This document shows, one piece after another, positions 4,001-28,141 of a stretch of 64,000 nucleotides of DNA. Under the pieces are notes generated by a model, which was given only the letters and a program-made list of their open reading frames with translations, was not told where the DNA came from and did not search any database. Source of the DNA: an uncultured Actinomycetes bacterium (GTDB taxonomy: Bacteria > Actinomycetota > UBA4738 > HRBIN12); assembly GCA_964447335.1 (NCBI GenBank), contig CAYUSA010000001.1:63091-127090 (forward strand), read 5' to 3'. The number at the start of each line of letters is the position of its first letter. Within the stretch, counting starts at the first letter, position 1. The translations under genes and the position numbers were made by a program.

Positions 4001-4440
4001 GCGAGGGGCGGGTGCTCGTCGCCGACGACGACGGCCTGGTGCGCGAGGTCGTGCGCGAGCTGCTCGAGGACTATGGGTTCGACATCGTCGGCGAGGCCGA
4101 GGACGGCTCCGTCGCGGTCCGCCTCGCCGGCGAGCTGCTGCCCGACGTCGTGCTGATGGACATGCGGATGCCCGTGATGGACGGCATCGAGGCGACGGCC
4201 GAGATCCGCGGCCGGCAGCCGAACGTCCAGGTCGTGATGCTCTCGGCCTACGACGACGAGGGGTTCAAGCAGGACGCCGAGCAGGCCGGGGCCCTGTGCT
4301 ACCTCGTGAAGGGCATGGGCGGCGGGCTGATCCGGGACGTGCTCCGCTCGGCCGTGGACACGGCGCGAGGGCTGGCGCTGCGAGGGATGGCCGCGGAGGC
4401 GAGCGGGCCTAGCGGGCGCGCTGGACCTTGCCGGCCTTGA
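3997..4440 (+). CDS. single-domain response regulator (receiver only, no output domain)
   Basis: Receiver-domain motifs [25 protein letters not shown] and YLVKG. The 147-aa protein ends without a LuxR helix-turn-helix. The start overlaps the kinase stop, and the 3' end overlaps convergent rpmB by 32 bp. Confidence 0.7.
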
Positions 4441-4600
4441 TGCAGCTCGTGCACGCGTGAACGCGCTTCGGGGTTCCGTTCACCACGGCGCGGACCCGCT
4501 GGATGTTGGGGTTCCACCGGCGCGGGCTCCGGCGGTGGGAGTGGGAGACCTGCATGCCGAAGAACGGCTTCTTCCCGCAGATGTCGCAGACGGCTGCCAT
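4409..4600 (-). CDS. rpmB: 50S ribosomal protein L28
   Basis: [63 protein letters not shown]. The ORF-track N-terminal extension is rejected and the start is placed at the ATG at 4598-4600. Confidence 0.93.
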
Positions 4601-4748
4601 GGCCGAGCAAGGGTAGCAGACGACCGGAGGCGGCCAACCCACGATCCTGAGCTCGGGGCTGGGCCCGCGTGCGCGCTCGGTCGGCCCGGCGTACGTACCG
4701 CTCGACGCCTGAGCGGAACGCGGATGACCCTCGTGGTAGAACCGACCC

Positions 4749-6983
4749 ATGCTTCCACCATGTTCTTCGGAGCGCCCGGTGGCGCTGACGCTCGCCTCGC
4801 CGGTCGAGGCGATCGATCGGCAGCTCGCGAACCGCCGCACCGGGTTCCGGACCAAGGGAGACCCGGCGCACGAGGTCCTCTCAGCCTCGCTCGGCATCCA
4901 GATCGTGGGGCAGCTGTTGCACCACTACCCGCGCCGGTACATCGACCGCTCGCAGGTGGCCAGGATCCGCGACCTCAAGATCGGGCAGCAGGCGACCGTG
5001 ATCGCGACGGTGAAGCGCGCGGTCAAGCGCCAGACCCGGCGTCACCAGACGATGGTCACCGTCACGCTGTACGACGGCTCCGGGTACCTGGATCTCACGT
5101 TCTTCAACCAGCCCTGGATGGCCTCGATGTACAAGGAGGGACACGAGGTCGCGGTCTCGGGCGTCGTGCAGCTCTACAAGGGTCGGCTCCAGCTCGCGAA
5201 CCAGGAGGTCGAGCTCCTCAAGGGCGACGAGGCCGACCTGGTCCACACCGGTCGCATCACGCCGGTCCACCGCGCGACCGATGGCATCACGACGCGCACG
5301 ATCCGGGAGCTGGTGCATCGCGCGCTCGAGCAGCTCCGCACGATCGCCGACCCGATGCCGCCCGACGTCGTCGCGGCCGAGCGGCTCTCCGCGTTCGACG
5401 GCGCGATCCGCCAGGTCCACTTCCCCGCCTCGCAGGAGGAGCGCCGGGCGGCCGAGGAGCGCCTGAAGTTCGACGAGCTGTTCACGCTCGAGCTCGGCGT
5501 GGCGTTCCGCAAGCACCGCGTCGAGGCCGCCCAGACCGGCGTCCGGCACGAGCCGGACGGGGCCCTCGTCCGGCGCCTGCTCGCGACGCTGCCGTTCGAG
5601 CCGACCGGCGCGCAGACGCGCGCGATGGGCGAGATCGACACGGCGATGGCGCGCCCCCGCCCGATGAACTTGCTCCTGCAGGGCGACGTCGGCTCGGGCA
5701 AGACGCTCGTCGCGCTCCACGCCGCGCTCGTCGCGATCCAGTCCGGGCACCAGGCCGCGATCATGGCCCCGACCGAGGTCCTCGCGGGGCAGCACTTCCG
5801 GTCGATGGCGGCGCTGCTCGGCCCCTTCGGCGCGATCCCGTACCTCGAGCTCACGGGCGCGCCGGATGACGGGCCGCAGAGCTCACTGCTCGAAGGACCC
5901 GAGGACGTACCCGCCGAGGCCGGGGTCACGTACGCGCTCCTCACCGCCGGGGTCACCGGCAAGGACCGGGTGCGGATCCTCGAGGGCATCGCGGGCGGCG
6001 ACGTCGACCTGGTCGTGGGGACCCACGCGCTCGTCCAGGAAGGGGTCGCGTTCGCCGACCTCTCGCTCGCGGTGATCGACGAGCAACACCGCTTCGGCGT
6101 GCACCAGCGCATGGCACTGAAGGGGAAAGGCGGCTCGCCGGACGTCCTCATCATGACGGCGACGCCGATCCCGAGGACCCTCGCGCTCACGTACTACGGC
6201 GATCTCGACGTCGTCGTCCTCGACGAGATGCCGAAGGGCCGGCAGCCGGTCGAGACGAAGATCGCGCGCACCAAGCAGGAACGCGACGCCGCCTACGCGC
6301 TCATACGCCGCGAGGTCGAGGCCGGACGGCAGGCGTTCGTGGTCTGCGCCGCGATCGACGAGGCGAACAAGAGCGAGGTCCGCGCCGCCGAGGCGGAGGC
6401 GAAGCGGCTTGCCGAGGACGTCTTCCCCGACCTCTCGCTCCACCTGTTACACGGCCGCATGCGTCCCGCCGAGAAGGAGCGCGTGATGGAGGCGTTCCGC
6501 TCGGGCGAGCACCACCTGCTGATCTCGACCACCGTGATCGAGGTCGGTGTCGACGTGCCGAACGCGACGGTCATGCTCGTCGAGAACGCCGAGCGGTTCG
6601 GACTCGCGCAGCTCCACCAGCTCCGGGGCCGGATCGGCCGCGGCGAGCACGCCTCGTCCTGCGTGCTCTTCGACGAGTCGAAGCAGGACAACGAGGAGGC
6701 CCGCGCCCGCCTGGACGCGATGGTCCGCACGACCGACGGCTTCGAGCTCGCCGACGAGGACCTGCGGCTCAGAGGTGAGGGCACCCTCTTCGACGTGAAA
6801 CAGTCCGGCATGCCCGACCTGAAGCTTGCGCGCCTGGCCGAGGACCTCGAGCTCGTCAAGCGCGCCCGCGCCCGTGCGTTCGCCGTGATCGACGAAGACC
6901 CGTCCCTCGAACGGCACCCCGGCCTGCTCCTCGAGCTCCGCTCGCGCTTCGAGCGCTCGATCGAGTGGCTTTTCCACTCCTGA
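4749..6983 (+). CDS. recG: ATP-dependent DNA helicase RecG
   Basis: 744 aa with a wedge-domain N-terminus, helicase motifs GDVGSGKT and [10 protein letters not shown], and the C-terminal [12 protein letters not shown]. Confidence 0.92.
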
Positions 6984-7013
6984 TGCTCGCCCGGCGGATG
7001 GGCCGCGGATACC

Positions 7014-10000
7014 ATGCGCGTAGATGAGTCCGTGGAAGTGCAACACGTGACGCCCGACCCTGGCAACTCGGCCCCCGAGCCGGGGGCCGGAGCCGGGGGG
7101 TCCTCAGCGCCGCCGGCGCGTCCACCCCGCCCCGGCGTCGCGCGCGTCTGCGCGGCCGTCGCCGCCCTCCTCGGCGGCCTCGTCCTCGTCGGCTGGGCCC
7201 TCGGCATCGAGGTGCTGAGGAGCCCGCTCCCCGGCGAGGTCTCGATGAAGCCCAACACGGCCCTGTCGTTCCTGCTGCTCGGACCTGCGCTCCTCCTGCT
7301 CCTCGTCGGGAGGGCGGAACGCCGCCTTCGCGCCGCCGGAAGGCTCCTGGCCCTTGCTCCCGTGATCGTCTCCCTGCTCACGCTGGCGGAGTACGCGTTC
7401 GACCGTGACCTCGGGATCGACGAGCTGCTGTTCCGCGACACGACGGCCGCGGTTGCCACCGTCGTGCCGGGCAGGCCGGCGCCGTTGACGGCCGTCTGTT
7501 TCCTGCTGCTCGGGTCGGCGCTCCTCGTGCTCGATCGTCGACGCGGCGCAGGTCTCGCGCAGGTGCTCGGATCGGTCGCGGGCTTCGTGGGGCTCCTCGG
7601 GCTCCTGCCGTACCTCTACGGCCTGCGGTCGTCCTCGGGGCTCATCGCGCGCGAGACCCAGATGGCGATGCACACGGCGGTGGCGATGGTCCTCCTCGGA
7701 GTGGGCGTGGTGCTGGCTCGTCCGGATCGGGGGCCGATGGCCTTCGTCGGCAGCGACACGATCGGGGGGAGCCTTGCCCGGCGCCTGCTGCCCGTTGCGG
7801 TTGGCCTGCCCGTCGCCGCCGGCTGGCTGGCCGTGGGGGGCCAGCGCTTGGGGCTGTACGACCCCGGCTTCCGCGTCTCGGTCGTGGCGACCGCGAGCGC
7901 TGCCGTCCTCGCGGTGCTGACGTGGGTGGGGACTCGGTCCGCCCACCGCTCGGACCTCGCACGCAGGCAGGCGGAGCGAACGCGCGTGGACCTGTTCCGC
8001 GCCAATCCCAGCGCCGGGTGGGTCACCCGCATGTCCGATGGTCTGTTCGTCGACGTCAACGAGGCGTTCGCCCAGACCTTCGGCCGGGCCAGGGAAGACC
8101 TGATCGGCCGGACTTCCGTCGAGCTCAACATCTGGGCGGATCTGGGGGAGCGCGAGGCCGTGATGCGGATGCTTCGCGAGCAAGGGACGGTCGAGGGTAT
8201 GGAAGCGCACCTCCGCGACACCAACGGACGTTCGTTCCCCGCCCTGTTCGCGGCGAGGGTCGAGGAGATCGACGGCGAGCCGCACGTCGTGGGCTCGCTC
8301 CTGGACATATCCGAGCGGAGGCGCGCGGATGAGGAACGGGAACGGTCCGCGAGGCGTCTCGAGGGGCTGAACGCGATCGGTCGCGACATCCTGGGCGCCC
8401 GATCGACGGAAGAAGTGACTCGCGTGGGCCTCGCGCGCCTGCGCGAGCTGGTCCCCTGCATGCGGGCCTCCCTCGCCCGGTTCGACCCGGCGACGCAAGA
8501 GCTGGTGATCCTGGCTCTGGACGCGGAGGGGGAGACCGAGGTCGGGATCGGCGCGCGCTTCCCCCTCACCGCGGCCGGCCCAACGGACAGGCTCCGGCGC
8601 GGTGAGATCAACCGGATCCCCGACACGCTGGAGGTGCGGGACCCGTCACCGTCGGTGCGTCGATTGATCGAGGAGGGTGTACGGATGTACGCGAACGTAC
8701 CGATGGTGGCCGCGGGGGAGCTGATCGGCACCATCAACCTGTCGTCCGCAACGCCGGGCGGATTCGCAGAGGAGGAGCTCGATGCCACCCGGGAGGTGGC
8801 CGACCTCCTCACCGTGGCGCTGGTGGAGTCGGACCTCCGGGACGAGCTGCGACGGCACGCGGAGGACCTGGAGCAGCGGGTGGCCGAGCGGACCGCGGCT
8901 CTGTCCGAGAGCGAGACCCGCTGCCGGTCGCTCCTGGCCAACGCCCCCGACGGGGTCCTACTCGTCGACCCGGCGGGGGTGATCGCGTTGGCGAACGACA
9001 CGGCCGCGACGCTCTTCGGCTACGAGGTGATCGAGCTTCACGGGCTGCCCGTGGAGGTGCTCGTGCCCGAGTCGCTCTGGGCGACCCACGGGAGGCACCG
9101 GGAGGAGTACTCCACCGAGCACGTCGCTCGACCCATGGGAACGGGACTTGCGCTCCGCGGACGGCGCAAGGACGGGACGGAGTTCCCCGCCGACATCTCC
9201 CTGAACTCGATCCTCCCCGACAACGCCCACGGCGGGCCGAGCGCGATCGCATTCGTTCGGGACGTCACGGAGCGGGAGCGGATCGAGGAGGCGATCGTCG
9301 CGGCCAAGGAGGAGGCCGAACGGGCGAACCGGGCCAAGGACGAGTTCCTCTCGCGGATGAGCCACGAGCTCCGCACGCCGTTGAACGCGGTCCTCGGGTT
9401 CGCCCAGGTGCTCGAGATGGAGGATCTACCGCCCGAGCAGCACGACAGCGTCCGGCAGATCCGCATGGGAGGGCAACACCTGCTCGAGCTGATCAACGAG
9501 GTCCTGGACATCTCGCGGGTCGCGACCGGGGATCTCTCGCTCTCGCTCGAGCCGGTCGGGGTGAGCGAGACGCTCCGCGACGTCGTCGACCTCGCCCAGC
9601 CGCTCGCCGCCGACCGGGGCATCACGCTGCGGCTGGAGGATGCCAGCGGGCTCCACGTCCTGGCCGACCGCCAGCGGCTCAAGCAGGTCCTGTTCAATCT
9701 GCTCTCCAACGCGATCAAGTACAACCGCGAGGGGGGCAGTGTGGACGTCTCCTGGGCCGAGGCGCCGGAGGGGAAGCTCCGGATCCACGTCACCGACACG
9801 GGTCCCGGGATCCCCCCCGAGCGGATGGGGCAGGTGTTCGTCTCCTTCGACCGTCTGGGGGCCGAGGCGGGCGGCGTCGAGGGGACCGGCCTCGGGCTGT
9901 CCTTGTCGAAGGCCCTGGCCGAGGGGATGGGGGGAACGCTCGAGGTGAAGAGCGAGGTGGGGGCCGGCTCGGTCTTCACGGTCGAGCTGCCGCTCGCCGA

Positions 10001-10445
10001 GCCGCCCGACCAGCGCTACGAGCGGGAGCCCCGTGAGCACGACCGGATGGAGGAGCGCGGGCAGGCCCGGACCGTGCTGTACGTGGAGGACGACCTGTCC
10101 AACCTCCGGCTGATCGAACGGATCCTCGACCGACGGCCGGGGGTCCGCCTGCTGACCGCGATGCAGGGGCGCCTCGGGATCGAGCTCGCCCGAAAGCACA
10201 AGCCGGACCTCATCCTGCTCGACCTGCACCTGCCGGACATCGGCGGGGAGGAAGCGCTCCGCTGGCTCCGGGGAGATCCCGCCACGGCGGGCATCCCCGT
10301 CGTCGTGATCTCGGCGGATGCCACCCAAGCCCAGATCGAGACGCTGCTCGCCGCGGGGGCGCGTGAGTTCGTGACCAAGCCGATCGACGTGAAGCGGTTC
10401 CTGCAGGTCGTGGACGACGTGTTGCGAGGGCCCGAGGATGGGTGA
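7014..10445 (+). CDS. hybrid sensor histidine kinase (membrane domain, PAS/GAF/PAS, HisKA, HATPase_c, REC)
   Basis: 1143 aa. The HisKA motif is MSHELRTPLNAVLGFAQVLE; the ATPase G-boxes are DTGPGIPPE and GTGLGLSLSKALAEG; the C-terminal receiver carries TVLYVEDD, LILLDLHLPD and VTKPID. The true start may be downstream of 7014. Confidence 0.8.
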   Translation: MRVDESVEVQHVTPDPGNSAPEPGAGAGGSSAPPARPPRPGVARVCAAVAALLGGLVLVGWALGIEVLRSPLPGEVSMKPNTALSFLLLGPALLLLLVGRAERRLRAAGRLLALAPVIVSLLTLAEYAFDRDLGIDELLFRDTTAAVATVVPGRPAPLTAVCFLLLGSALLVLDRRRGAGLAQVLGSVAGFVGLLGLLPYLYGLRSSSGLIARETQMAMHTAVAMVLLGVGVVLARPDRGPMAFVGSDTIGGSLARRLLPVAVGLPVAAGWLAVGGQRLGLYDPGFRVSVVATASAAVLAVLTWVGTRSAHRSDLARRQAERTRVDLFRANPSAGWVTRMSDGLFVDVNEAFAQTFGRAREDLIGRTSVELNIWADLGEREAVMRMLREQGTVEGMEAHLRDTNGRSFPALFAARVEEIDGEPHVVGSLLDISERRRADEERERSARRLEGLNAIGRDILGARSTEEVTRVGLARLRELVPCMRASLARFDPATQELVILALDAEGETEVGIGARFPLTAAGPTDRLRRGEINRIPDTLEVRDPSPSVRRLIEEGVRMYANVPMVAAGELIGTINLSSATPGGFAEEELDATREVADLLTVALVESDLRDELRRHAEDLEQRVAERTAALSESETRCRSLLANAPDGVLLVDPAGVIALANDTAATLFGYEVIELHGLPVEVLVPESLWATHGRHREEYSTEHVARPMGTGLALRGRRKDGTEFPADISLNSILPDNAHGGPSAIAFVRDVTERERIEEAIVAAKEEAERANRAKDEFLSRMSHELRTPLNAVLGFAQVLEMEDLPPEQHDSVRQIRMGGQHLLELINEVLDISRVATGDLSLSLEPVGVSETLRDVVDLAQPLAADRGITLRLEDASGLHVLADRQRLKQVLFNLLSNAIKYNREGGSVDVSWAEAPEGKLRIHVTDTGPGIPPERMGQVFVSFDRLGAEAGGVEGTGLGLSLSKALAEGMGGTLEVKSEVGAGSVFTVELPLAEPPDQRYEREPREHDRMEERGQARTVLYVEDDLSNLRLIERILDRRPGVRLLTAMQGRLGIELARKHKPDLILLDLHLPDIGGEEALRWLRGDPATAGIPVVVISADATQAQIETLLAAGAREFVTKPIDVKRFLQVVDDVLRGPEDG

Positions 10446-12780
10446 GGCGGCAGAGCGACCGTCGACCGCGAGGGATCGCCTTTGGCGGTGGTACCTGGGA
10501 TCGGTCTTGTTCTTGGCGGTGCTCTTCGTCCCGCTGCGGGGATCCGACCGGGCGGTCGCCATCCTCAGCGTCGGAGGGATCACCTCGATGCTCGTGGCCA
10601 TCCCGGTGGGGCTCCGTCTCCACCGTCCGGCCGACGTGCGGCCCTGGTACGTGATCCTCGCCGGGATGGCGGGGTCCGTCGTCACGAACGCGATCTCGTA
10701 CTCGGCGAACACCCGGGCCGCCACGCCGGCGTACCCCTCCGTCGTGGACGTCCTCTACGTCGGAGCGTACGTCGTCGTCGTCGCGGGGTTCGCGCTGTTC
10801 GTTCGCGCGAAGATCGCACGGGGTGACCGGGACGGCTTCATCGACGCTCTGATCGTGACCGCGGGGCTGGGGGTGCTGTCCTTCGTCCTCCTGATCGATC
10901 CGTACCTGGACGACGCGAACCTTTCCGCTGTGGCCCGCGCGACGTCCATGTCCCACCCGCTCCTCGAGCTCGCGCTCCTGGGTATCGCCGCACGCCTCGT
11001 ATTCCTGCCGGGGAGGAGGCCCGTCGCGCTCTGGTTCGTCTGCCTGTACGCCGCCCTGTCGTTCGCCGGAGACGCCGTCTACGGCGTCCAGGTCCGGGCC
11101 GAGACCTTCTCGTTCGAGAGCGGGGCCAACGCGCTCTGGATCGCCTCGTTCGCTTTCTTCGGCGCCGGTGCGCTCCACCCGTCGATGCGGGAGCTGACGG
11201 AGCGCCGCAGAGGAGCCGTGTCGGGGAACGGGACGGCCCGACTGGTGGCCTTGGGGGTCATGGCGATGCTGGGCCCCGCGACGTTGGCGATCGGCTGGGG
11301 CCATGCCTCTGGGCACTTCCGTCAGGTTGGCGCGATCTCTGCGGCCGTGGTCGCCCTGGTCCTCGGCCGCATGTGGATGCTGACCGTGGGCCTCGAGACG
11401 CACCGCAGGGCCCAGCAGGCGCTCAGAGAGAGCGAGGAGCGGTCCCGGCGCCTGTCGGACGCGACCTTCGAGGGGGTCATCGTGATCGCGGACGGGAGGA
11501 TCGTCGAGGCGAACCGGGCGTTCCTCGAGATGTTGGGGCTGGAAGCCGAGCAGGTGGTGGGCCTGGCTCCGGAGGAGCTGATAGCGCCCGAGTCCGTCCC
11601 GACGATCTACGAGCACCTGCGCTCCGGGACCGAGGAGCCGTGGGAGATGGAGGTCGTTCTCCGTAACGACCGCCGGATGTGGCACGAGTCGAGGGCGAGC
11701 ACCATCCCCTATGGCGGGTCGGAGGCGCGGGTGATCTCGATCCGCGACATCACGGAGCGGAGGCGCGTGGACGCCGCGCTCCGGGAGAGCGAGCAGCGGT
11801 TCCGGACCTTGTTCGAGACGGCGCTCGACGCGATCGTGGTCATCGATGCTGAAAGCACGATCGTTCAGGCGAACCCGGCCGCTTCCGAGCTCGTCGGGGT
11901 CTCGACCGACCGGATGGTCGGACGCGGCTTCGGGGGGCTCATCGCCCCCGGCTTCGACGCCGACGCCGCACGGGAGACCGCCCACGGGATCGAGGGGTTC
12001 CGCGTGGACATCCCGATCGTGGCGGCCGATGGGACCGAGCGAAAGGTGGAGGCCACCGCCGGCCTGCTCCCCGACGGGAACCTGGTGATCGTCGCCAGGG
12101 ACGTCTCCGAGCGCCGGCGTGCCGAGGAGGAGCTCCGCCGGGCGGAGGACCGATACCGCTCGCTGGTGGAGCGGCTCCCCGGCGCCGTGTACGTGGATGT
12201 TCCCGAGGGCGGCTTGGCCGGGTACACGTCGGTCTTCATCAGCCCCCAGGCCGAGACCCTTCACGGCTACGCGCCGGAGGAGTTCCTGGCCGATCCCGAT
12301 CTCTGGCCCCGGATCCTTCATCCCGAGGACCGCGAGCGGGCCCTGGAGGCCGACGCTCGTCACTGGAAGACCGGCGAGCCCCTGGACCAGGAGTTCCGCG
12401 TGATCGCCAAGGACGGCCGGGTGGTGTGGGTCCGGGACCGGGCCGTCCTGTTGCGCGACGACCAGGGCCGGGCCCTGATGTCCCAGGGGTTCCTGACGGA
12501 CATGACGGACCAGAAGGAGGCGGAGACCCTGCGCGACGCCAGGGACGAGGCCGAGCGCGACAACCGGGTGAGAAGCGAGTTCCTGTCGCGCATGAGTCAC
12601 GAGCTCCGGACGCCGCTGAACGCCATCCTCGGGTTCGGCCAGGTGCTGGAATCATCGTCCCTCGCGCCGGAGGACCGCGACAGCGTGGAGCGGATCATGG
12701 AGGGCGGCCGCCGGCTGCTCGAGCTGGTCGACGACCTGCTCGAGATCTCGCGGACCGGCGGCGGCGCGGGGCGGGGCTAG
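10438..12780 (+). CDS. PAS-rich sensor kinase paralog lacking the ATPase domain (truncated)
   Basis: Membrane domain, three to four PAS repeats, and a HisKA box MSHELRTPLNAILGFGQVLE. It ends 20 aa after the dimerisation helix (LLELVDDLLEISRTGGGAGRG*) with no HATPase_c. The start overlaps the previous gene's stop. Confidence 0.7.
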   Translation: MGEAAERPSTARDRLWRWYLGSVLFLAVLFVPLRGSDRAVAILSVGGITSMLVAIPVGLRLHRPADVRPWYVILAGMAGSVVTNAISYSANTRAATPAYPSVVDVLYVGAYVVVVAGFALFVRAKIARGDRDGFIDALIVTAGLGVLSFVLLIDPYLDDANLSAVARATSMSHPLLELALLGIAARLVFLPGRRPVALWFVCLYAALSFAGDAVYGVQVRAETFSFESGANALWIASFAFFGAGALHPSMRELTERRRGAVSGNGTARLVALGVMAMLGPATLAIGWGHASGHFRQVGAISAAVVALVLGRMWMLTVGLETHRRAQQALRESEERSRRLSDATFEGVIVIADGRIVEANRAFLEMLGLEAEQVVGLAPEELIAPESVPTIYEHLRSGTEEPWEMEVVLRNDRRMWHESRASTIPYGGSEARVISIRDITERRRVDAALRESEQRFRTLFETALDAIVVIDAESTIVQANPAASELVGVSTDRMVGRGFGGLIAPGFDADAARETAHGIEGFRVDIPIVAADGTERKVEATAGLLPDGNLVIVARDVSERRRAEEELRRAEDRYRSLVERLPGAVYVDVPEGGLAGYTSVFISPQAETLHGYAPEEFLADPDLWPRILHPEDRERALEADARHWKTGEPLDQEFRVIAKDGRVVWVRDRAVLLRDDQGRALMSQGFLTDMTDQKEAETLRDARDEAERDNRVRSEFLSRMSHELRTPLNAILGFGQVLESSSLAPEDRDSVERIMEGGRRLLELVDDLLEISRTGGGAGRG

Positions 12781-12811
12781 CACGGCCTGTACGGACGGCG
12801 GGACGCCCGGC

Positions 12812-12883
12812 GCCTACCTCACGAAGCCGTTCGACGTGAAGCGATCCCTGGGCGTCGTCGGAGGTTCCCTCGGGGGCGCGTAG
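12812..12883 (+). pseudogene. receiver-domain C-terminal remnant (AYLTKPFDVKRSLGVVGGSLGGA*)
   Basis: A short peptide in a different frame, right after the truncated kinase. It matches the receiver tail of the 7014..10445 gene (FVTKPIDVKRFLQVV). Confidence 0.5.
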
Positions 12884-12893
12884 GGCCGAGTCC

Positions 12894-14096
12894 TCACCCG
12901 GCGCCCGGCGCTGAGCCCTCGGCGGGAGCCACGAGCCCACCGCCCGAGGTCGCGGTCGCCGGGACCCAGCACTCGACCGTCGTACCCTTCCCGGGCGCCG
13001 TGTCGACGCGCCACCAGCCCCCTGCGAGCTCGGCGCGTTCTCGCATCGCCTTGAGCCCGAGGTGGTGCGAGGTGAGCGACGGGGGTCGCTCGGGGTCGAA
13101 GCCCCTGCCGTCGTCTCGGACCGTGAGGCGGAATCCGTGGTCCGCCTCCTCCACCTCCACGGTGACGCTGGTGGCGCGTGCGTGCTTCGCCACGTTCGCG
13201 AGCGCCTCCTGCGCGATCCGGTACAAGAGCGTGCGCACCCCCAGCTCCGGTTCCTCCGTGATCCGCCGCTCGACGCGCCAGGTCCACCCGGTGTCGGGGG
13301 GCGTGCGCTCGAGGTACTCGGAGAGCGCCTCCGCCAGGCCACCCGAGTCGAGCGCGGAGGGGTGCAGCTCGAAGAGCATGCGTCGGAGCCGGTCCATGGC
13401 TTGATGCACGATCGCCTCGGTCGTCGCGAGCTCCGCGGCCTCCTCGGTCCCCTCGAGCTTGTCGCGGAGCATCTGGAGGCGCAGCACGGCCGCGACCATG
13501 GCCTGCACCGGGTCGTCGTGGATGTTGTACGCGATGCGCCGCTGCTCGTCCTCCTGCGCCGCCACGAGGCGCGCGAGGAGCAGCCGGCGCGTGTCCTGGG
13601 ACGCCCGGAGGTCCCGCAGGGCATCCGAGAGCTCGGCGGTCCGCTCCTCGACCAGCTGCTCCAGGTGCTCGGCGTGCAAGCGAACCTGGAGATGCAGGTC
13701 CCGCGTATGGAGCAGGTTCCGGATCCGAAGGACGGCCTCGACGGCATCGAACGGCTTGGTCAGGAAATCCGAGGCCCCAGCCGCGAGGGCCTTCCGCTTC
13801 GCCGCCTCCGTCACGTCCGCCGTCAGGACCAGCACCGGGAGGAAGTCCTCGGCCGGGACGACCTGGTGGAGGCCCTCGAGGATCTGGTGCCCGCTGACGT
13901 GGGGCATCAGCAGGTCGAGGAGGACGATGTCCGGCTGCCACTCGCGCACGAGCGGGATCGCCTCGCGCGCGTCGGTCGTCCCGTGCACGTGCGGGAACCC
14001 GGCTCCGTACAGCAATCGCTCGAGCAGGCGGACGTTCGGTTCCTCGTCGTCCACGATCAAGATCCGGTGGTCCGTCGGCGCGGTGGTCTCCGTCAT
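12894..14096 (-). CDS. hybrid response-regulator/histidine kinase (REC, HisKA_3, HATPase_c)
   Basis: N-terminal receiver (ILIVDDEE, DIVLLDLLMP, VLVLTAD, FLTKPFD), a coiled coil, the His box RIAYNIHDDPVQ, and an ATPase domain (ANVAKHA...TVRDDGRGFDP...GLKAMRERAELAGG). Confidence 0.8.
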   Translation of the reverse strand: MTETTAPTDHRILIVDDEEPNVRLLERLLYGAGFPHVHGTTDAREAIPLVREWQPDIVLLDLLMPHVSGHQILEGLHQVVPAEDFLPVLVLTADVTEAAKRKALAAGASDFLTKPFDAVEAVLRIRNLLHTRDLHLQVRLHAEHLEQLVEERTAELSDALRDLRASQDTRRLLLARLVAAQEDEQRRIAYNIHDDPVQAMVAAVLRLQMLRDKLEGTEEAAELATTEAIVHQAMDRLRRMLFELHPSALDSGGLAEALSEYLERTPPDTGWTWRVERRITEEPELGVRTLLYRIAQEALANVAKHARATSVTVEVEEADHGFRLTVRDDGRGFDPERPPSLTSHHLGLKAMRERAELAGGWWRVDTAPGKGTTVECWVPATATSGGGLVAPAEGSAPGAG

Positions 14097-14716
14097 GGTC
14101 GGTCCTCCTTCATCCGGCGTCGGCGAGGGTCTGGTCGAGGAGCTTGAGGAACCGCGCGACGTCGAGCGGTTTCGTCATGCATCCGCGAGCGCCCGCGGCG
14201 ACCAGCCGCTCCAGCTTGCTCCGGGTCGTGTCCGCGGTGAGCACGACCATCGAGGATGTGAGCGGTCTCCGGTTCCTCCAGCAGCTTCGAGAGCACGAGC
14301 TCTCCCGACATGTCGGGCAGGCGCAGGTCCAGGAGCACGAGGTCGGGGCGGGTCGTGCGCAGGTGTCGATGCCCAGCGCGCCCGAGGTGACGGCGAGCAG
14401 GTGGATGTGTGGGCGCCGCGTGAGGACCTTCTCGAGCAGCTTGACGTTCGTCGGGTTGTCCTCGATGTAGACGATGGTGGCCGGCCCGTCTCGGGAGCGC
14501 CTGGAACGCCTTGAGCGCCGGTGTCCTCTTGGGGGCCTCCAGGAGGTCGATGCGGAAGCTCGTCCCCCGGCCGGGCACGCTGCTGACGCGGATCGTCCCA
14601 CCTGTGGCCTCGACGAGACGCTTCGTGAGCGCGAGGCCGAGGCCAGCGCCGCGAACCGGGCCCGTCTCGGCGCCGAGCCGCTCGAAGGGGGAGACCTGAG
14701 CGACAGGTCCCGCCAT
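14093..14716 (-). pseudogene. frameshifted 3' fragment of a hybrid kinase (HATPase_c C-terminus plus REC)
   Basis: Homologous segments are split across three minus-strand frames: FERLGAETGPVRGAGLGLALTKRLVEATGGTIRVSS, TIVYIEDNPTNVKLLEKVL, PDLVLLDLRLPDMSGE and VVLTADTT...CMTKPLDVARFLKLL. There are no upstream HisKA or sensor parts. Confidence 0.65.
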
Positions 14717-14916
14717 GCGGAACGCAACTGCACACGCCCTCCTCTCTCTTCGCGGGCGCGGGATGTCGTTCCCGAGGACGCAACCCTAGCGCTTGGTTCC
14801 CCGGCTGCGAATAAGCCGAAGGTCACAGGTCTGCCGTCCCCTTTCCGGGTGATGCTCGATCCCGGGCGGGCCCCCACCGGCGTGAGCGACCCCGGGCTCC
14901 CGAGACGGCGCGGGCC

Positions 14917-16314
14917 GTGGGTGATAATGACCGTCCGGGACGGTCTCTCCAGGAGGGTCGGTTGAGGGACACGAGGCCGCACGAGCCTCGGGGAGCCATT
15001 CGTGGTCACGCCGGTAGCGGCGGTCGTGCTCTCCGGGCGGCGATCGTCTACGCGGTGCTGGGGGTCCTGTGGGTCCTGTTCTCCGACCGGCTCCTCGTGT
15101 GGCTGGTTCGCGACCCGCAGACGCGGGATGTGGTCCAGACCGCGAAGGGGTGGCTGTTCGTCTCGGTGTCTGCCGTGCTCGTGTACGGGTTCGTCCGGCT
15201 CGCCGAGCGGGCCGAGCGCCGTGCCGCTCGGGCCGAGGACTCCCTCCGGGCGAGCCAGGAGTGGCTTCGGAGCATCGCGGAGAACGTGACCGACATGATC
15301 TTCCGGTACCGGGTGGCGGAGCCGCAGGGGTACGAGTACGTGAGTCCCTCCTCGACCGAGATCACGGGTTTCACGCCGGAGGAGCACTACGCGGATCCCC
15401 GTCTGCCTTTCCAGATCGTCCACGGTGACGATCGGAGCGCGCTCGAGCGGCTGCTGTGCGGCGAGTCACGCGGCGAGCGCGTGCGCTTCCAGCGCAAGGA
15501 CGGCAGCACGATCTCGACCGAGTTCCGCGTGCGTGCGATCCTCGACGAGACGGGTCGGCCGGTCGCGGTCGAGGGGATCATTCGCGACGTCACGGCGCTC
15601 GCGCTCACCGAGCAGGAGCTGGAGGAGCGCGTTCTCGACTTCGGGAAGCTGGCCGAGGAACGGCTGGCGCTCATGCGCAAGCTCGTGCACGCGCAGGAGG
15701 AGGAGCGCCGGCGCATCGCGCTCGAGATCCACGACGGGATCGGCCAGGTGCTCACCTCGATCTCGCTCTACGCCTCGGATCTGCCGGAGGTCGTCCCCGA
15801 GGAGCACCGCGCCCGCGCCGAGAGGGTCCGCGAGCTCATCCAGCGTGCGATCGCCGACAGCCGGATGCTCGTCTGGAGCCTGCGTCCGCCGGACCTCGAG
15901 CGCCTGGGCCTGGTCCCGGCGATCCAGCACCTCGTCGAGAACCTCCTCGACCATGCGACGGAGCACCTCGACCATGCGACGGAGCACATCGATGTGCTGG
16001 ACGAGACCAAGGGCCGGCGCCTGACACCCGAGATCGAGACCGTGGTCTTCCGCATCGTGCAGGAGGCACTGAACAACGCGACGAAGTACGCGCACGCATC
16101 GTCCATCTCGGTCGTGGTGGCCATCCGGGACGGCGTGCTCTCCGCGGTGGTCGAGGACGACGGTCGTGGTTTCGACGTCGAGACCGTCGACACGTTCGGT
16201 GGCGTCGGTATGGGCGGGATGCGCGAGCGTGCGGACTTCGTGGGCGGTAGGTTGGTCGTCGAGTCGGCGAAGGACGTCGGCACCGTGGTCCGGCTGGAGG
16301 TCCCGATCCCGTGA
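14917..16314 (+). CDS. PAS sensor histidine kinase (HisKA_3 + HATPase_c)
   Basis: Two transmembrane helices, a PAS domain, the His box RRRIALEIHDGIGQ, and an ATPase domain (QEALNNATKYAHAS...VEDDGRGFD...GMGGMRERA). It contains an in-frame 21-bp tandem duplication (LDHATEH twice). The true start is probably downstream of 14917. Confidence 0.8.
   Translation: MGDNDRPGRSLQEGRLRDTRPHEPRGAIRGHAGSGGRALRAAIVYAVLGVLWVLFSDRLLVWLVRDPQTRDVVQTAKGWLFVSVSAVLVYGFVRLAERAERRAARAEDSLRASQEWLRSIAENVTDMIFRYRVAEPQGYEYVSPSSTEITGFTPEEHYADPRLPFQIVHGDDRSALERLLCGESRGERVRFQRKDGSTISTEFRVRAILDETGRPVAVEGIIRDVTALALTEQELEERVLDFGKLAEERLALMRKLVHAQEEERRRIALEIHDGIGQVLTSISLYASDLPEVVPEEHRARAERVRELIQRAIADSRMLVWSLRPPDLERLGLVPAIQHLVENLLDHATEHLDHATEHIDVLDETKGRRLTPEIETVVFRIVQEALNNATKYAHASSISVVVAIRDGVLSAVVEDDGRGFDVETVDTFGGVGMGGMRERADFVGGRLVVESAKDVGTVVRLEVPIP
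15947..15988 (+). repeat. perfect 21-bp tandem duplication (ctcgaccatgcgacggagcac twice) inside the kinase gene
   Basis: Direct reading of the sequence; it encodes LDHATEH twice. Confidence 0.85.
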
Positions 16315-16952
16315 GCGAGCGGCCCATCCAGGTGATGTTGATGGACGACCACAACGTCGTCCGCGAGGGCCTCCGGGCCCTCCTCGAGCGCCAGACCGAC
16401 ATCCGCGTCGTCGCGGAGGCCGGCACCGTCGCCGAGGCCGAGGCGGCCGAGGTCGAGCCCGACGTGGTCGTCGCCGACCTGGTGCTGCCTGACGAACGCG
16501 GCGCCGAGGTCGTCCGGCGCCTGCGCGAGCGATTCCCCCACTCGGCGATCCTGGTCCTCACGATGGTGGACAACCCGACCGACGTGCAGCTGTGCCTGGC
16601 GGCGGGTGCGAAGGGGTACCTGATGAAGGAGGCCGCGGGCGCCGAGCTGACGGACGCCGTGCGGGCGGTCGCTCAGGGACGCGAGTACCTGCAGCCGGCG
16701 CTCGGTGCGGTGCTCGCGCGGTGGCGCGAGGCACCCGGGAAGATCAGTGCGAAGGCGTCGGTCGACCTCGGCGAGCGCGAGCGCGAGGTGCTGCGCCTGA
16801 TCGCCCTCGGTCACACGAACGCCGAGATCGCGCGCCTACTGTTCCTGTCGGTCCGCACCGTCGAGAACCACCGCGCCAGCCTGATGCGCAAGCTCGGCGT
16901 GAAGACCAGGGCGGACCTGGTCCGGCACGCGACCCAGTCCGGTCTGGTCTGA
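16311..16952 (+). CDS. LuxR/NarL-family response regulator
   Basis: Receiver domain (VMLMDDH, VVVADLVLPD, ILVLTMVD, YLMK) plus a C-terminal LuxR helix-turn-helix (EREVLRLIALGHTNAEIARLLFLSVRTVENHRASLMRKL). The start overlaps the kinase stop. Confidence 0.88.
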   Translation: MSERPIQVMLMDDHNVVREGLRALLERQTDIRVVAEAGTVAEAEAAEVEPDVVVADLVLPDERGAEVVRRLRERFPHSAILVLTMVDNPTDVQLCLAAGAKGYLMKEAAGAELTDAVRAVAQGREYLQPALGAVLARWREAPGKISAKASVDLGEREREVLRLIALGHTNAEIARLLFLSVRTVENHRASLMRKLGVKTRADLVRHATQSGLV

Positions 16953-17012
16953 CGCCCCCTGCGGGACACGTGCCGTGCCTCGCCGCCGTACCCCGCCGCG
17001 TACAGTGACCGC

Positions 17013-17567
17013 GTGCGGGTCGTCGCCGGCAGCGCGAAGGGTGTCCGCCTCGGCCCGGTGCCCAAGGGCGTGAGGCCGGTCTCCGACATGGCCCGCGAGG
17101 GCCTGTTCTCCAGCCTCGGCCCCCGGGTCCCCGGCGCGCGGGTGCTCGACCTGTTCGCGGGCACGGGCGCGCTGGGCATCGAGGCCCTGTCCCGCGGGGC
17201 CGCCGAGGCCGTGTTCGTGGACCGGGCCCGTTTGGCGACGGCGGCCATCCAGGAGAACCTCGAGCGCACGCGCCTGACAGACGAGGCTGTGGTCGTCGGC
17301 GTGGATGTGCGTGCCTTTCTCACGAGAGATGACAAGAACGGGGCTCCGTTCGACCTCGTGCTGGCGGATCCGCCCTACGAGCTCCAGGGCCCCGAGCTGG
17401 ACGGCGTGCTCGCCGACCTCGCCGACGGGTGGCTGGCGGCGCCCGGGTGGACGGTGGCCCTGACCCGCAGGAAGGGGAGTTCCACGCCTGTCATTCCGGT
17501 AGACTGGCTCGCTGCCAGGCGCCTGGTGTACGGCGACACCCTGGTGGTGCTCTTGCGGGAGGCATAG
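17013..17567 (+). CDS. rsmD: 16S rRNA (guanine966-N2)-methyltransferase RsmD
   Basis: GTG start. Motifs VLDLFAGTGALGIEALSRGA and LADPPY. Confidence 0.85.
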   Translation: MRVVAGSAKGVRLGPVPKGVRPVSDMAREGLFSSLGPRVPGARVLDLFAGTGALGIEALSRGAAEAVFVDRARLATAAIQENLERTRLTDEAVVVGVDVRAFLTRDDKNGAPFDLVLADPPYELQGPELDGVLADLADGWLAAPGWTVALTRRKGSSTPVIPVDWLAARRLVYGDTLVVLLREA

Positions 17568-25356: not shown

Positions 25357-25365
25357 CCTGAAGGC

Positions 25366-26358
25366 GTGGCGGACCTCTTCTTCGTCCTGCTGTTCATCGC
25401 CCTCGCTGCAGGCGGGCTGCTCTTCGTGCTCGCGAGGGCTCGGCGGAACCGGGAAGCCGGACGGCCCTCTACGGCGGCTCGGAAACCGCCGGCCTCGCCC
25501 GCAGCGGGTGGCCTGGGCGCCCGGGTTCGAGCCCTGTTCGCCGCCAGGCCCGCGGGCGAGGCCGAGTGGAGCGCGCTCGAGGAGCTCCTCGTCAAGGCCG
25601 ACGTCGGCCCGACGACGGCCGCGCGGATCGTGAGCGACCTGCGTCAGCGGTACGAGCCGGGCGAAGACCCCGCCGCGATGCTCGAGGCCGAGGTGGCGGA
25701 CGTCCTCTCGGGCGACGACACGGCGATGCACCTGCCCGACGACCGACTGGGTGTCGTGCTCGTGGTCGGGGTGAACGGCTCGGGCAAGACGACGACGATC
25801 GGCAAGCTCGCGGCTCGGCTCGCGAAAGATGGTCGGAAGGTGAGCCTGGCCGGCAGCGACACGTTCCGCGCGGCGGCCTCGCAGCAGCTCGAGGTGTGGG
25901 CCCAGCGGGCGGGCGCCCAGCTCGTCAGCCAGGAGCGTGGCGCCGATCCGGGAGCCGTCGCGTTCGACGCCGTGAAGGCCGCCGAGGCTCGGGGCATGGA
26001 CGTCCTCATCGTGGACACGGCGGGGCGGCTCCACACGAAGACGCCGCTGATGGACGAGCTCCAGAAGGTGCGCCGGGTGATCGAGAAGGCCTCGGGCCGG
26101 GTTCCCGACGAGACGCTGCTCGTCCTGGACGCCACGACGGGGCAGAATGGCATCGCACAGGCCCGCGCGTTCACCGACGCGGTGGAGGTCACCGGGGTGG
26201 CGCTCACGAAGCTGGACGGGACGGCGAAGGGGGGAGTCGTGCTGGCGGTCCGCGAGCAGCTCGGCGTCCCGGTCAAGCTCGTCGGCATCGGCGAGGGCAC
26301 CGACGACCTGCAGCCGTTCGACGCGCATCGGTTCGCTCGGCAGCTGCTCGAGGGGTGA
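25366..26358 (+). CDS. ftsY: signal recognition particle receptor FtsY
   Basis: NG domain with GVNGSGKTTTIGKLA, DTFRAAA and DTAGR motifs. Confidence 0.9.
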   Translation: MADLFFVLLFIALAAGGLLFVLARARRNREAGRPSTAARKPPASPAAGGLGARVRALFAARPAGEAEWSALEELLVKADVGPTTAARIVSDLRQRYEPGEDPAAMLEAEVADVLSGDDTAMHLPDDRLGVVLVVGVNGSGKTTTIGKLAARLAKDGRKVSLAGSDTFRAAASQQLEVWAQRAGAQLVSQERGADPGAVAFDAVKAAEARGMDVLIVDTAGRLHTKTPLMDELQKVRRVIEKASGRVPDETLLVLDATTGQNGIAQARAFTDAVEVTGVALTKLDGTAKGGVVLAVREQLGVPVKLVGIGEGTDDLQPFDAHRFARQLLEG

Positions 26359-26360
26359 CG

Positions 26361-26753
26361 ATGGCCAAAGCGGACATCTTGATCGTCGAGGACCATCCGA
26401 CGATGCGAGAGGCGATGCGTCTCGTGCTCGAGCACGAGGGGTTCGTGATCCGCGAAGCGGCCGACGGCCCGACCGCCCTCGCGATGGTGCGCGAGCAGCC
26501 GCCGGACCTGATGTTCCTCGACCTCAACATCCCCGGCGCGAGCGGCGCCGACGTCCTGCAGGAGCTGAAGTCCGACCCGATCACGGCGGGCGTCCGCGTG
26601 ATCATCGTGACGGCGACCGGCGAGGAGGGGCGGGACTTCGTCATCGCGCTCGGCGCCGATGAGTACTTCACGAAACCGTTCTCACCGACGGCGCTCCTCC
26701 GGACCGTGGAGCGCGTGCTCGACCTCGGTGGGGCGGCTTCCCCGACGACGTGA
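26361..26753 (+). CDS. single-domain (CheY-like) response regulator
   Basis: ILIVEDH, LMFLDLNIPG, IIVTATG and YFTKPF motifs; 130 aa. It sits inside a longer out-of-frame ORF-track entry. Confidence 0.75.
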   Translation: MAKADILIVEDHPTMREAMRLVLEHEGFVIREAADGPTALAMVREQPPDLMFLDLNIPGASGADVLQELKSDPITAGVRVIIVTATGEEGRDFVIALGADEYFTKPFSPTALLRTVERVLDLGGAASPTT

Positions 26754-26803
26754 GAACCTTGGGGCTCATGTAGCGAAGCGGTAGCCCCACAGGAGAAGGT
26801 CTC

Positions 26804-28141
26804 ATGTTCGACACGCTCACCGGCCGCCTGGACGGCATCTTCAAGAAGCTCCGCTCGCGCGGGAAGCTGCATCCCAAGCAGGTCGAGGGCGCGCTGCTCG
26901 AGATGCGCACCGCGCTCCTCGAGGCCGACGTCGCGGTCGAGGTCGCCGACGACCTGCTCGAGCGCGTCCGCACCCGCGCGCTGTCCGAGGAGGTCATGAA
27001 GAGCCTCACGCCGGCGCAGCAGGTCGTGAAGGTCGTGCGCGACGAGCTCCAGAGCACGATGGGTGGTACGCAGGCCCCGTTCCAGCTCGTCGGCGCCAAG
27101 CCGGCGGTCGTGATGATGGCCGGCGTGCAGGGCTCGGGCAAGACGACCGCGTGCGCGAAGCTCGCGGTGCAGCTGAGGTCCAAGGGCAAGCGACCGCTCC
27201 TCGTCGCCGCGGACCTGTGGCGGCCGGCGGCCGTCGAGCAGCTGATGACGCTCGGGCGCGAGATCGGCGTCGACGTCGTCTCGGACGGCAAGGACGCGGT
27301 GAAGGTCGCGAAGAGCGCGCTGAAGCACGCCGATCGCGAGGGCCACGACGTGGTCATCGTCGACACCGCCGGACGCCTGCACGTCGACGAGGAGATGATG
27401 CGCGAGGCCCGTCGCGTGAAGGACACCATCAAGCCCCACCACGTGCTCATGGCGTGCGACGCGATGACCGGTCAGGACGCCGTCGTGCAGGCCAAGGCCT
27501 TCATGCGCGAGGTCGACACGACCGGGTTCGTGCTCACCAAGCTCGACGGCGACGCGCGGGGTGGCGCCGCGCTCTCGATCACGGCGGTGACCGGTCGTCC
27601 GGTGTTCTTCGTCGGGACCGGCGAGAAGCCGCAGGATCTCGAGCCGTTCTACCCGGACCGGATGGCCTCGCGGATCATGGGCATGGGCGACGTGCTCACG
27701 CTCATCGACAAGGCGCAGGGGTCGATGGACGCGGAGACCGCCGCCGCGGCCGCCGAGAAGATGCTGAAGGCCCAGTTCACGCTCGAGGACTTCCTCGTCC
27801 AGATGCGTGAGATGAAGAAGCTCGGGCCTCTGCAGGACCTCTTGGCGATGCTTCCGGGGGTCCCCGGCGGCAAGAACGCCCTGAAGGACCTCCAGGTGGA
27901 CGAGGGCCAGATGGGCCGGGCCGAGGCCATCATCTGCTCGATGACCGGGGAGGAGCGCCGGAACCCCGCTATCATCGGTGGGTCCCGCCGCCTGCGGATC
28001 GCTCGCGGCTCCGGCGCGACGACGGCCGACGTGAACTCCCTGCTGAAGGAGTTCGAGGCCGCCAGGAAGATGATGAAGACGATGTTGGGCGGCAAGCGGA
28101 TGCCCCGGATCCCGGGGATGCCGACGATGCCGGGGATGTAG
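26804..28141 (+). CDS. ffh: signal recognition particle protein Ffh
   Basis: GVQGSGKTT, DTAGRLH, and a Met-rich M domain at the C-terminus. Confidence 0.92.
   Translation: MFDTLTGRLDGIFKKLRSRGKLHPKQVEGALLEMRTALLEADVAVEVADDLLERVRTRALSEEVMKSLTPAQQVVKVVRDELQSTMGGTQAPFQLVGAKPAVVMMAGVQGSGKTTACAKLAVQLRSKGKRPLLVAADLWRPAAVEQLMTLGREIGVDVVSDGKDAVKVAKSALKHADREGHDVVIVDTAGRLHVDEEMMREARRVKDTIKPHHVLMACDAMTGQDAVVQAKAFMREVDTTGFVLTKLDGDARGGAALSITAVTGRPVFFVGTGEKPQDLEPFYPDRMASRIMGMGDVLTLIDKAQGSMDAETAAAAAEKMLKAQFTLEDFLVQMREMKKLGPLQDLLAMLPGVPGGKNALKDLQVDEGQMGRAEAIICSMTGEERRNPAIIGGSRRLRIARGSGATTADVNSLLKEFEAARKMMKTMLGGKRMPRIPGMPTMPGM

Follow-up and report, generated by a model that had tools for sequence, protein, structure and literature searches.

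Gene B ends at the boundary of its dimerisation domain

The window analysed here is a stretch of 64,000 nucleotides (nt) from an uncultured Actinomycetes bacterium (contig CAYUSA010000001.1, positions 63,091 to 127,090 of the forward strand). Within it, a cluster of two-component genes contains a sensor kinase gene, hereafter gene B, whose open reading frame (ORF) stops just past the dimerisation/phospho-acceptor (DHp) domain. An intact paralog, gene A, lies directly upstream and is used here as the standard of comparison for B, and the end of a receiver domain is found out of frame downstream of the B stop codon. B is an ordinary truncated sensor-kinase paralog in a gene-rich signalling cluster and, in our reading, not a new type of signalling protein. 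The features discussed first are the following, in window coordinates.

10438..12780, + strand: gene B, truncated sensor kinase ORF, 780 residues.
12571..12759, + strand: HisKA/DHp domain of B (Pfam; aligned to crystallised DHp constructs).
12754..12820, + strand: deletion scar, the 67 nt between the last and the first bases alignable to A (local DNA alignments to A and to the related locus L008).
12782..12883, + strand: remnant of a receiver C-terminus in the +1 frame, last ~23 residues, stop codon at 12881-12883.
7014..10445, + strand: paralog A, intact hybrid sensor kinase, 1143 residues (Pfam), reference for the losses in B.

The 780-codon frame of B shows neither a frameshift nor an internal stop, and its G+C content at third codon positions (GC3) is 0.92, similar to that of other genes of the window. 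Its start overlaps the stop of A by 8 nt. In the encoded protein, a multi-pass membrane domain (residues ~1-330) precedes three PAS domains (~337-684), which are followed by a complete HisKA/DHp domain (residues 712-774, E=1e-18 in Pfam), and no Pfam match to HATPase_c or Response_reg is obtained in this ORF. The gene with HisKA and no ATPase domain that had been described in an earlier, sequence-only reading of this DNA is therefore real. Also, the H-box which that reading had pointed out is present as MSHELRTPLNAILGF, with the core SHELRTPL and the phospho-acceptor His codon at 12598-12600, and it retains both the Glu adjoining the His and the Thr three residues past that Glu (HExxT).

The DHp domain of B ends in LLELVDDLLEISR, after which the reading frame passes from LLEISR through eight unrelated codons (TGGGAGRG) to a TAG stop at 12778-12780. 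The stop is located 8 codons past the last residue alignable to a DHp, and not the 20 or so residues past the dimerisation helix that had been estimated. Moreover, the C-terminal 109 residues of B align through the final residue of the crystallised stand-alone DHp constructs 7n0e_A (60 residues) and 4mt8_A (102 residues). Since the alignment reaches the very end of these constructs, the dimerisation/phospho-acceptor hairpin of B is complete.

HisKA kinases are unable to autophosphorylate in the absence of their ATP-binding domain. B has the DHp domain with a phospho-acceptor His that is typical of HisKA-family kinases; C-terminal to it, where an autokinase carries HATPase_c with the N, G1, F and G2 boxes, only the eight codons are found, and the fused receiver with a phospho-acceptor Asp that defines a hybrid kinase is absent, only its out-of-frame end of ~23 residues surviving. 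A product of this kind, without an ATP-binding domain, would be unable to autophosphorylate and, without the receiver Asp, would also be unable to relay phosphate within the same protein.

An out-of-frame receiver tail and a net loss of 788 nt

Downstream of B, the +1 frame from 12782 reads TACTDGGTPGAYLTKPFDVKRSLGVVGGSLGGA up to the stop codon at 12881-12883. Its conserved core, YLTKPFDVKRSLGVV, lies at 12815-12859, and the motif LTKPFD starts 38 nt past the stop codon of ORF B, which agrees with the out-of-frame receiver tail that had been placed about 40 bp downstream. The tail was evaluated by an ungapped BLOSUM62 scan with the 23-residue receiver tail of A over all six frames of the window, in comparison with 100 order-2 Markov simulations. 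It scores 43 (at 12803), on par with the real receiver tails of the window, whereas the best score among the simulated windows is 33 (mean 25.3, standard deviation 3.1); all other window scores of at least 35 correspond to genuine receiver domains. At the DNA level, the 38 nt at 12821-12858 are 81.6% identical to A 10374-10411 (pairwise E=5e-5). The piece is too short for profile methods, giving no Pfam match and only 4.7 bits with a custom receiver hidden Markov model, a value level with chance matches.

Moreover, the tail carries YLTKP[LF]DV.R.L, a motif that marks the C-terminus of receivers in this subfamily of hybrid kinases, and is co-linear with A, terminating about where A terminates, that is, near the ancestral stop. 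In our reading, the surviving stretch around the KP motif would correspond to β5-α5 of the receiver. G or C occupies 19 of its 22 third codon positions (counted by eye), and the tail is as similar to A as the tail of a functional ortholog is. This similarity, together with third positions that are still mostly G/C, argues for a recent deletion.

The junction was located with the DNA alignment of B to 7014-10445 that the sequence-only reading had proposed for this purpose. Homology between B and A ends at 12753 (A 9518) and restarts at 12821 (A 10374), in what is homologous to a receiver 3' end. In the comparison with the gene of P0002, the closest homolog of B (locus L008), homology ends at 12760 and restarts at 12815. 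The spacing between the shared anchors is 855 nt (285 codons) in both A and P0002 and 67 nt in B, which corresponds to a net loss of 788 nt (~0.79 kb). An internal deletion is thus supported by the breakpoints and by this difference in spacing, although it is smaller than the roughly 1 kb initially suggested. As had been claimed, it covers HATPase_c and most of the receiver, all but the last ~23 receiver residues being gone. The 67-nt scar, inside which the TAG stop of B falls, shows no homology to the catalytic domain of A or P0002 in local DNA alignments.

Based on these comparisons, the ancestral B would have belonged to one family with A and P0002 and would have been a full hybrid kinase, with a membrane domain, three PAS domains, HisKA, HATPase_c and a receiver. 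A deletion of net 788 nt would have taken everything from just past the DHp helix to ~23 codons before the original stop, leaving the receiver tail in the +1 frame and leading the kinase frame into TAG after eight new codons. Since 788 is 2 mod 3, a codon formerly in the B frame (1 mod 3) now starts at 2 mod 3, which is the frame of the tail. In this way, a single intragenic deletion of ~0.79 kb would explain why the domains are missing, why the stop comes early and why the remnant lies in its present frame.

The exact 780-residue B protein is also encoded on two Logan contigs, L006 and L007 (runs SRR13723394 and SRR13723397), which are 100% identical and gap-free to window positions 4168-16283 (12.1 kb) and 9359-16283 (6.9 kb), both spanning the junction. 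In addition, no k-mer of at least 17 nt from 12650-12950 recurs elsewhere in the window. Because assemblies of separate runs agree, no such repeat is present, and A and B are at best 73% identical in DNA, the assembly collapse that had been raised as a concern at this junction is unlikely. The data demonstrate the domain loss, two homology breakpoints, a consistent arithmetic of the frames and reproducibility across assemblies. As a separate observation, L006 and L007 both end exactly at 16283, inside the HATPase_c region of the kinase at 14917..16314, which suggests a repeat shared with another paralog or a strain-level break.

Paralog A, the closest homolog and the architecture of relatives

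Paralog A is composed of a membrane domain followed by PAS, GAF, PAS, HisKA (774-837), HATPase_c (885-995) and Response_reg (1021-1133). Its GAF domain is absent from B. Across the last PAS and HisKA, only 40% of the amino acids are identical between the two proteins, and in HisKA the DNA identity is 73%. Given this low identity and the different architectures, B is not a recent copy of A, contrary to the first impression of a duplicate of the 7014..10445 gene; judging from the sequences, it is an old paralog.

The closest protein to B among ~5.8 billion is P0002 (986 residues, 45% identity; JGI sample 3300036760, locus L008), which shares the membrane domain and the N-terminal PAS of B and is intact through HATPase_c and the receiver. 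The search for intact orthologs that had been suggested therefore yields one intact homolog and, in the databases searched, no relative closer than 45% identity; in a scan of genome contigs, only distant PAS/HisKA relatives were found in place of an intact ortholog of B.

The end of B just past the DHp is unusual among its relatives. B alone, among the best 120 homologs, ends at most 110 residues from the H-box. In an exhaustive search of B residues 561-780 against 1.84 billion representatives, the best match spans to the DHp end in 68 (B included) of the 150 matches listed, and 63 of these 68 listed representatives continue for at least 150 residues past the DHp. Of the four exceptions other than B, two are apparently fragments cut off at contig ends and two are reads with frameshifts. 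The DHp-terminal architecture of B is thus a singleton, with no conserved DHp-terminal family among the relatives. Frameshifted kinases are also found among the database relatives of B (P0028, P0044, P0244 and P0339).

A side observation concerns the membrane input domain of B (10438-11427, residues 1-330), which outside this kinase family is found for the most part in fusion with GGDEF diguanylate cyclase domains. GGDEF proteins made up most of the matches when only the membrane domain was searched, and carriers of this fusion occur in Frankia, Parafrankia, Actinoplanes, Candidatus Limnocylindria and metagenomes. The only Pfam entries on these matches are GGDEF and PAS, so the membrane region itself apparently lacks a Pfam model.

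Decayed two-component genes near B and at locus L008

On the opposite strand, the 3' side of B faces two further two-component features.

12894..14096, - strand: RR-HK gene, receiver-HisKA_3-HATPase_c, 400 residues, intact, convergent with B (Pfam).
14110..14695, - strand: remnant C, decayed hybrid kinase (ORFs 14093..14716 and 14110..15423; tblastn in two frames).

Remnant C, located 1.3 kb from B and directly upstream of the intact RR-HK gene, consists of the C-terminal half of HATPase_c plus the whole receiver, read across frames -1/-2/-1/-2 (three frameshifts). It begins at about A residue 945, past the G1 box, and has no HisKA, sensor or any other N-terminal part, while it keeps its own receiver tail and stop.

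The RR-HK protein is 42% identical to its ortholog at L008, whose gene adjoins that of P0002. In the same locus, at 7437-8618, a receiver-PAS-HisKA protein of 393 residues ends ~10 residues past its DHp, 41 nt upstream of the RR-HK ortholog, and carries a degenerate H-box (MMHEMCAPL). This protein is also a singleton, all its homologs bearing HATPase_c, and represents an independent truncation at the same domain boundary as in B. Moreover, just downstream of P0002 (L008 13008-13291), an OmpR-type regulator is apparently split into a 36-residue receiver piece and a 57-residue Trans_reg_C piece. Judging from remnant C and from the truncated kinase and the broken regulator of L008, two-component paralogs evidently often decay in this lineage.

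Decay or retention of gene B

B is probably a young, lineage-specific truncation that is neutral or heading to loss, and would thus be one among several two-component genes that are decaying in this cluster. Decay is favoured because the architecture is a singleton, because the neighbouring remnant C is plainly decaying and because L008 also holds decayed two-component genes. As in truncated or pseudogenised histidine kinases of paralog-rich clusters, B has lost essential domains, keeps an out-of-frame leftover and stands alone in its architecture, and decayed paralogs are found close to it (remnant C) as well as in two further cases at L008. Relative to all its close homologs essential parts are missing, and homology remains in DNA that no longer codes for them, both of which are features of a gene remnant. 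A young event suffices to explain why the 780-codon frame is still open.

Several observations nevertheless weigh against decay. Unlike ordinary pseudogenes, B has an untouched 780-codon frame that ends cleanly at the boundary between DHp and ATP-binding domain, so that a stable, foldable product is conceivable. Three frameshifts are present in the ~600 nt of remnant C, and at that density B would hold roughly ten; an intact frame next to a frameshifted one implies that B is either much younger than C or kept by selection. Also, the H-box (HELRTP) is intact, and the start of B overlaps the stop of A as in co-translated operon genes. The intact frame by itself would fit a recent event as well as constraint.

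If B is decaying, it matters mainly for annotation: the 780-residue ORF is then best left out of counts of working histidine kinases, with 12782-12883 and 14110-14695 marked as remnants. It would also be a clean, in principle datable, case of a large cluster of two-component paralogs losing members.

The first alternative is that B has been retained as a functional, kinase-dead membrane PAS-DHp protein, which is possible but unlikely. By analogy with known systems, such a protein may dephosphorylate a receiver such as that of A, may form mixed DHp complexes that damp the autophosphorylation of A in the manner of RetS and GacS, or may be trans-phosphorylated by the ATP-binding domain of A as an extra phosphotransfer step. 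The intact ORF, in which B differs from remnant C, and the start codon overlapping A are in line with retention, and so is the L008 kinase that ends right past its DHp beside the RR-HK ortholog.

The phosphatase mode has a precedent in EnvZ and NtrB: the DHp domains of these kinases need no other part to act as phosphatases in vivo and confer a constitutive phosphatase phenotype there, the Thr/Asn being the phosphatase residue (PMC3510030). Like these fragments, B has a DHp without an ATP-binding domain, complete to the end of the crystallised stand-alone constructs, and conserves the His, the adjoining Glu and the Thr of HExxT. However, the EnvZ and NtrB fragments were engineered in the laboratory and act on a cognate regulator that is a protein of its own, whereas B is natural, has membrane and PAS inputs and has had its own fused receiver deleted.

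For inhibition through the DHp, the precedent is Pseudomonas aeruginosa RetS, which blocks GacS through DHp-DHp contact (PMC8498467; PDB code: 7n0e). In this case, a kinase-family protein modulates another one via the DHp, the B DHp aligns with those of both GacS and RetS, and PDB entries 7n0e and 6dk7 are among its structure matches. From this DHp similarity and the adjacency of the two genes, B may be a RetS-like inhibitor of A. Nonetheless, RetS is part of a conserved family and still has its receiver and ATP-binding-like domains, neither of which holds for B.

Against retention, no conserved family with such an architecture exists, B and the L008 protein being singletons whose relatives all have HATPase_c, and the own receiver partner of B was lost along with the ATP-binding domain. 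The recognisable out-of-frame tail marks the event as recent, so an intact ORF is expected even in the absence of selection. Moreover, B and A are only ~40% identical over the last PAS plus DHp, any interaction between them is putative, and the degenerate H-box of the L008 protein (MHEMCAP) suggests relaxed constraint. If B is indeed kept and active, it would be a natural DHp-only modulator of a hybrid kinase, of moderate interest for the two-component field.

B also differs from split kinases and from phosphotransferases of the Spo0B/ChpT type. In the split kinase Rv0600c/Rv0601c, as in Spo0B and ChpT, the phospho-acceptor His is carried by a DHp-like bundle that does not autophosphorylate alone, and in Spo0B and ChpT a degenerate alpha/beta domain is retained at the C-terminus. 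B has no C-terminal domain past its DHp and in this differs from the Spo0B/ChpT type of phosphotransferase. In the split system a partner gene supplies the ATP-binding half, whereas no stand-alone ATP-binding ORF is present in the window: with full-length A as the tblastn query, the HATPase_c region is matched only within complete kinases and in remnant C, where the N-terminal half of this domain is missing, so that the window offers no complete partner. The Mycobacterium tuberculosis Rv0600c/Rv0601c-TcrA locus comprises two kinase genes and one regulator (PMC3544749).

A broader form of retention, in which recurrent truncation at the boundary between DHp and ATP-binding domain is the lineage's selected route to input-plus-DHp modulators of paralogous hybrid kinases, seems to us decidedly improbable. 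Under this scenario, B would be co-translated with A and would target the receiver or the DHp of A, whether by removing phosphate, by RetS-like inhibition or as a relay that is itself phosphorylated in trans, and the independent DHp-terminal protein of L008 would be a second example.

Returning to the truncation itself, a larger or compound rearrangement may lie behind both breakpoints, with the same outcome for B; we give little credence to it. It may have been a deletion from the B DHp into the tail of a downstream tandem paralog, or a rearrangement tied to an inversion of the block formed by RR-HK and remnant C. In L008, RR-HK lies upstream of P0002 on the same strand, whereas here it is convergent with B, which implies at least one inversion breakpoint near the 3' end of B; also, the opposite-strand remnant C holds the kinds of domain that are absent from B, and the fit of the 788-nt loss to the frame would arise by coincidence one time in three. 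However, A and P0002 agree exactly on the distance between the anchors, and the frame fits a single event.

Two specific inversions were considered and rejected. Remnant C is not the missing half of B moved by a simple inversion, as it has its own complete receiver tail and stop. Had an inversion taken place between the two inverted repeats that code for LTKPFD (12817-12834 and 13747-13764), the ancestral RR-HK gene would have had an architecture at odds with that of its L008 ortholog. A receiver-pattern scan of metagenomes around the RR-HK gene gave only receiver relatives, with one locus matching the kinase half.

Finally, that the genome or most cells carry an intact gene, the contig representing a collapsed or rare deletion allele, is very improbable: although the window comes from a metagenome-assembled contig and both Logan contigs may stem from the same study as the deposited one, three assemblies, produced by different programs and drawing on two or more separate runs, have identical sequence through the junction and for more than 3 kb to either side of it, the window holds no repeat of at least 17 nt able to cause a collapse, and A and B differ too much in DNA (73% identity where most similar).

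Other features of the neighbourhood

The two-component cluster extends over 7014-16952 in a window of 71% G+C and contains A, B, RR-HK, remnant C, a PAS-HisKA_3 kinase (14917..16314) and a NarL-type regulator (16251..16952). It is flanked by recG (4749..6983) and an rsmD-like methyltransferase gene (16953..17567), in a gene string that otherwise consists of housekeeping genes (rpmB-recG ... mutM-smc-ftsY-ffh). The G+C content and the named relatives (Acidimicrobiales, Rhabdothermincola, Actinomycetota) do no more than suggest an actinobacterial lineage. The 113-nt spacer between the convergent B and RR-HK genes was considered as the site of a terminator or other RNA element, and this was rejected, as no terminator-like site was found there, no Rfam match was obtained anywhere in the window and the fold of the spacer is no better than that of shuffled sequences (z=+1.75). 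Outside the cluster, a stand-alone receiver gene at ~26340-26750 (+ strand) is located between ftsY (25357..26358) and ffh (26774..28141), an unusual site for a two-component gene.

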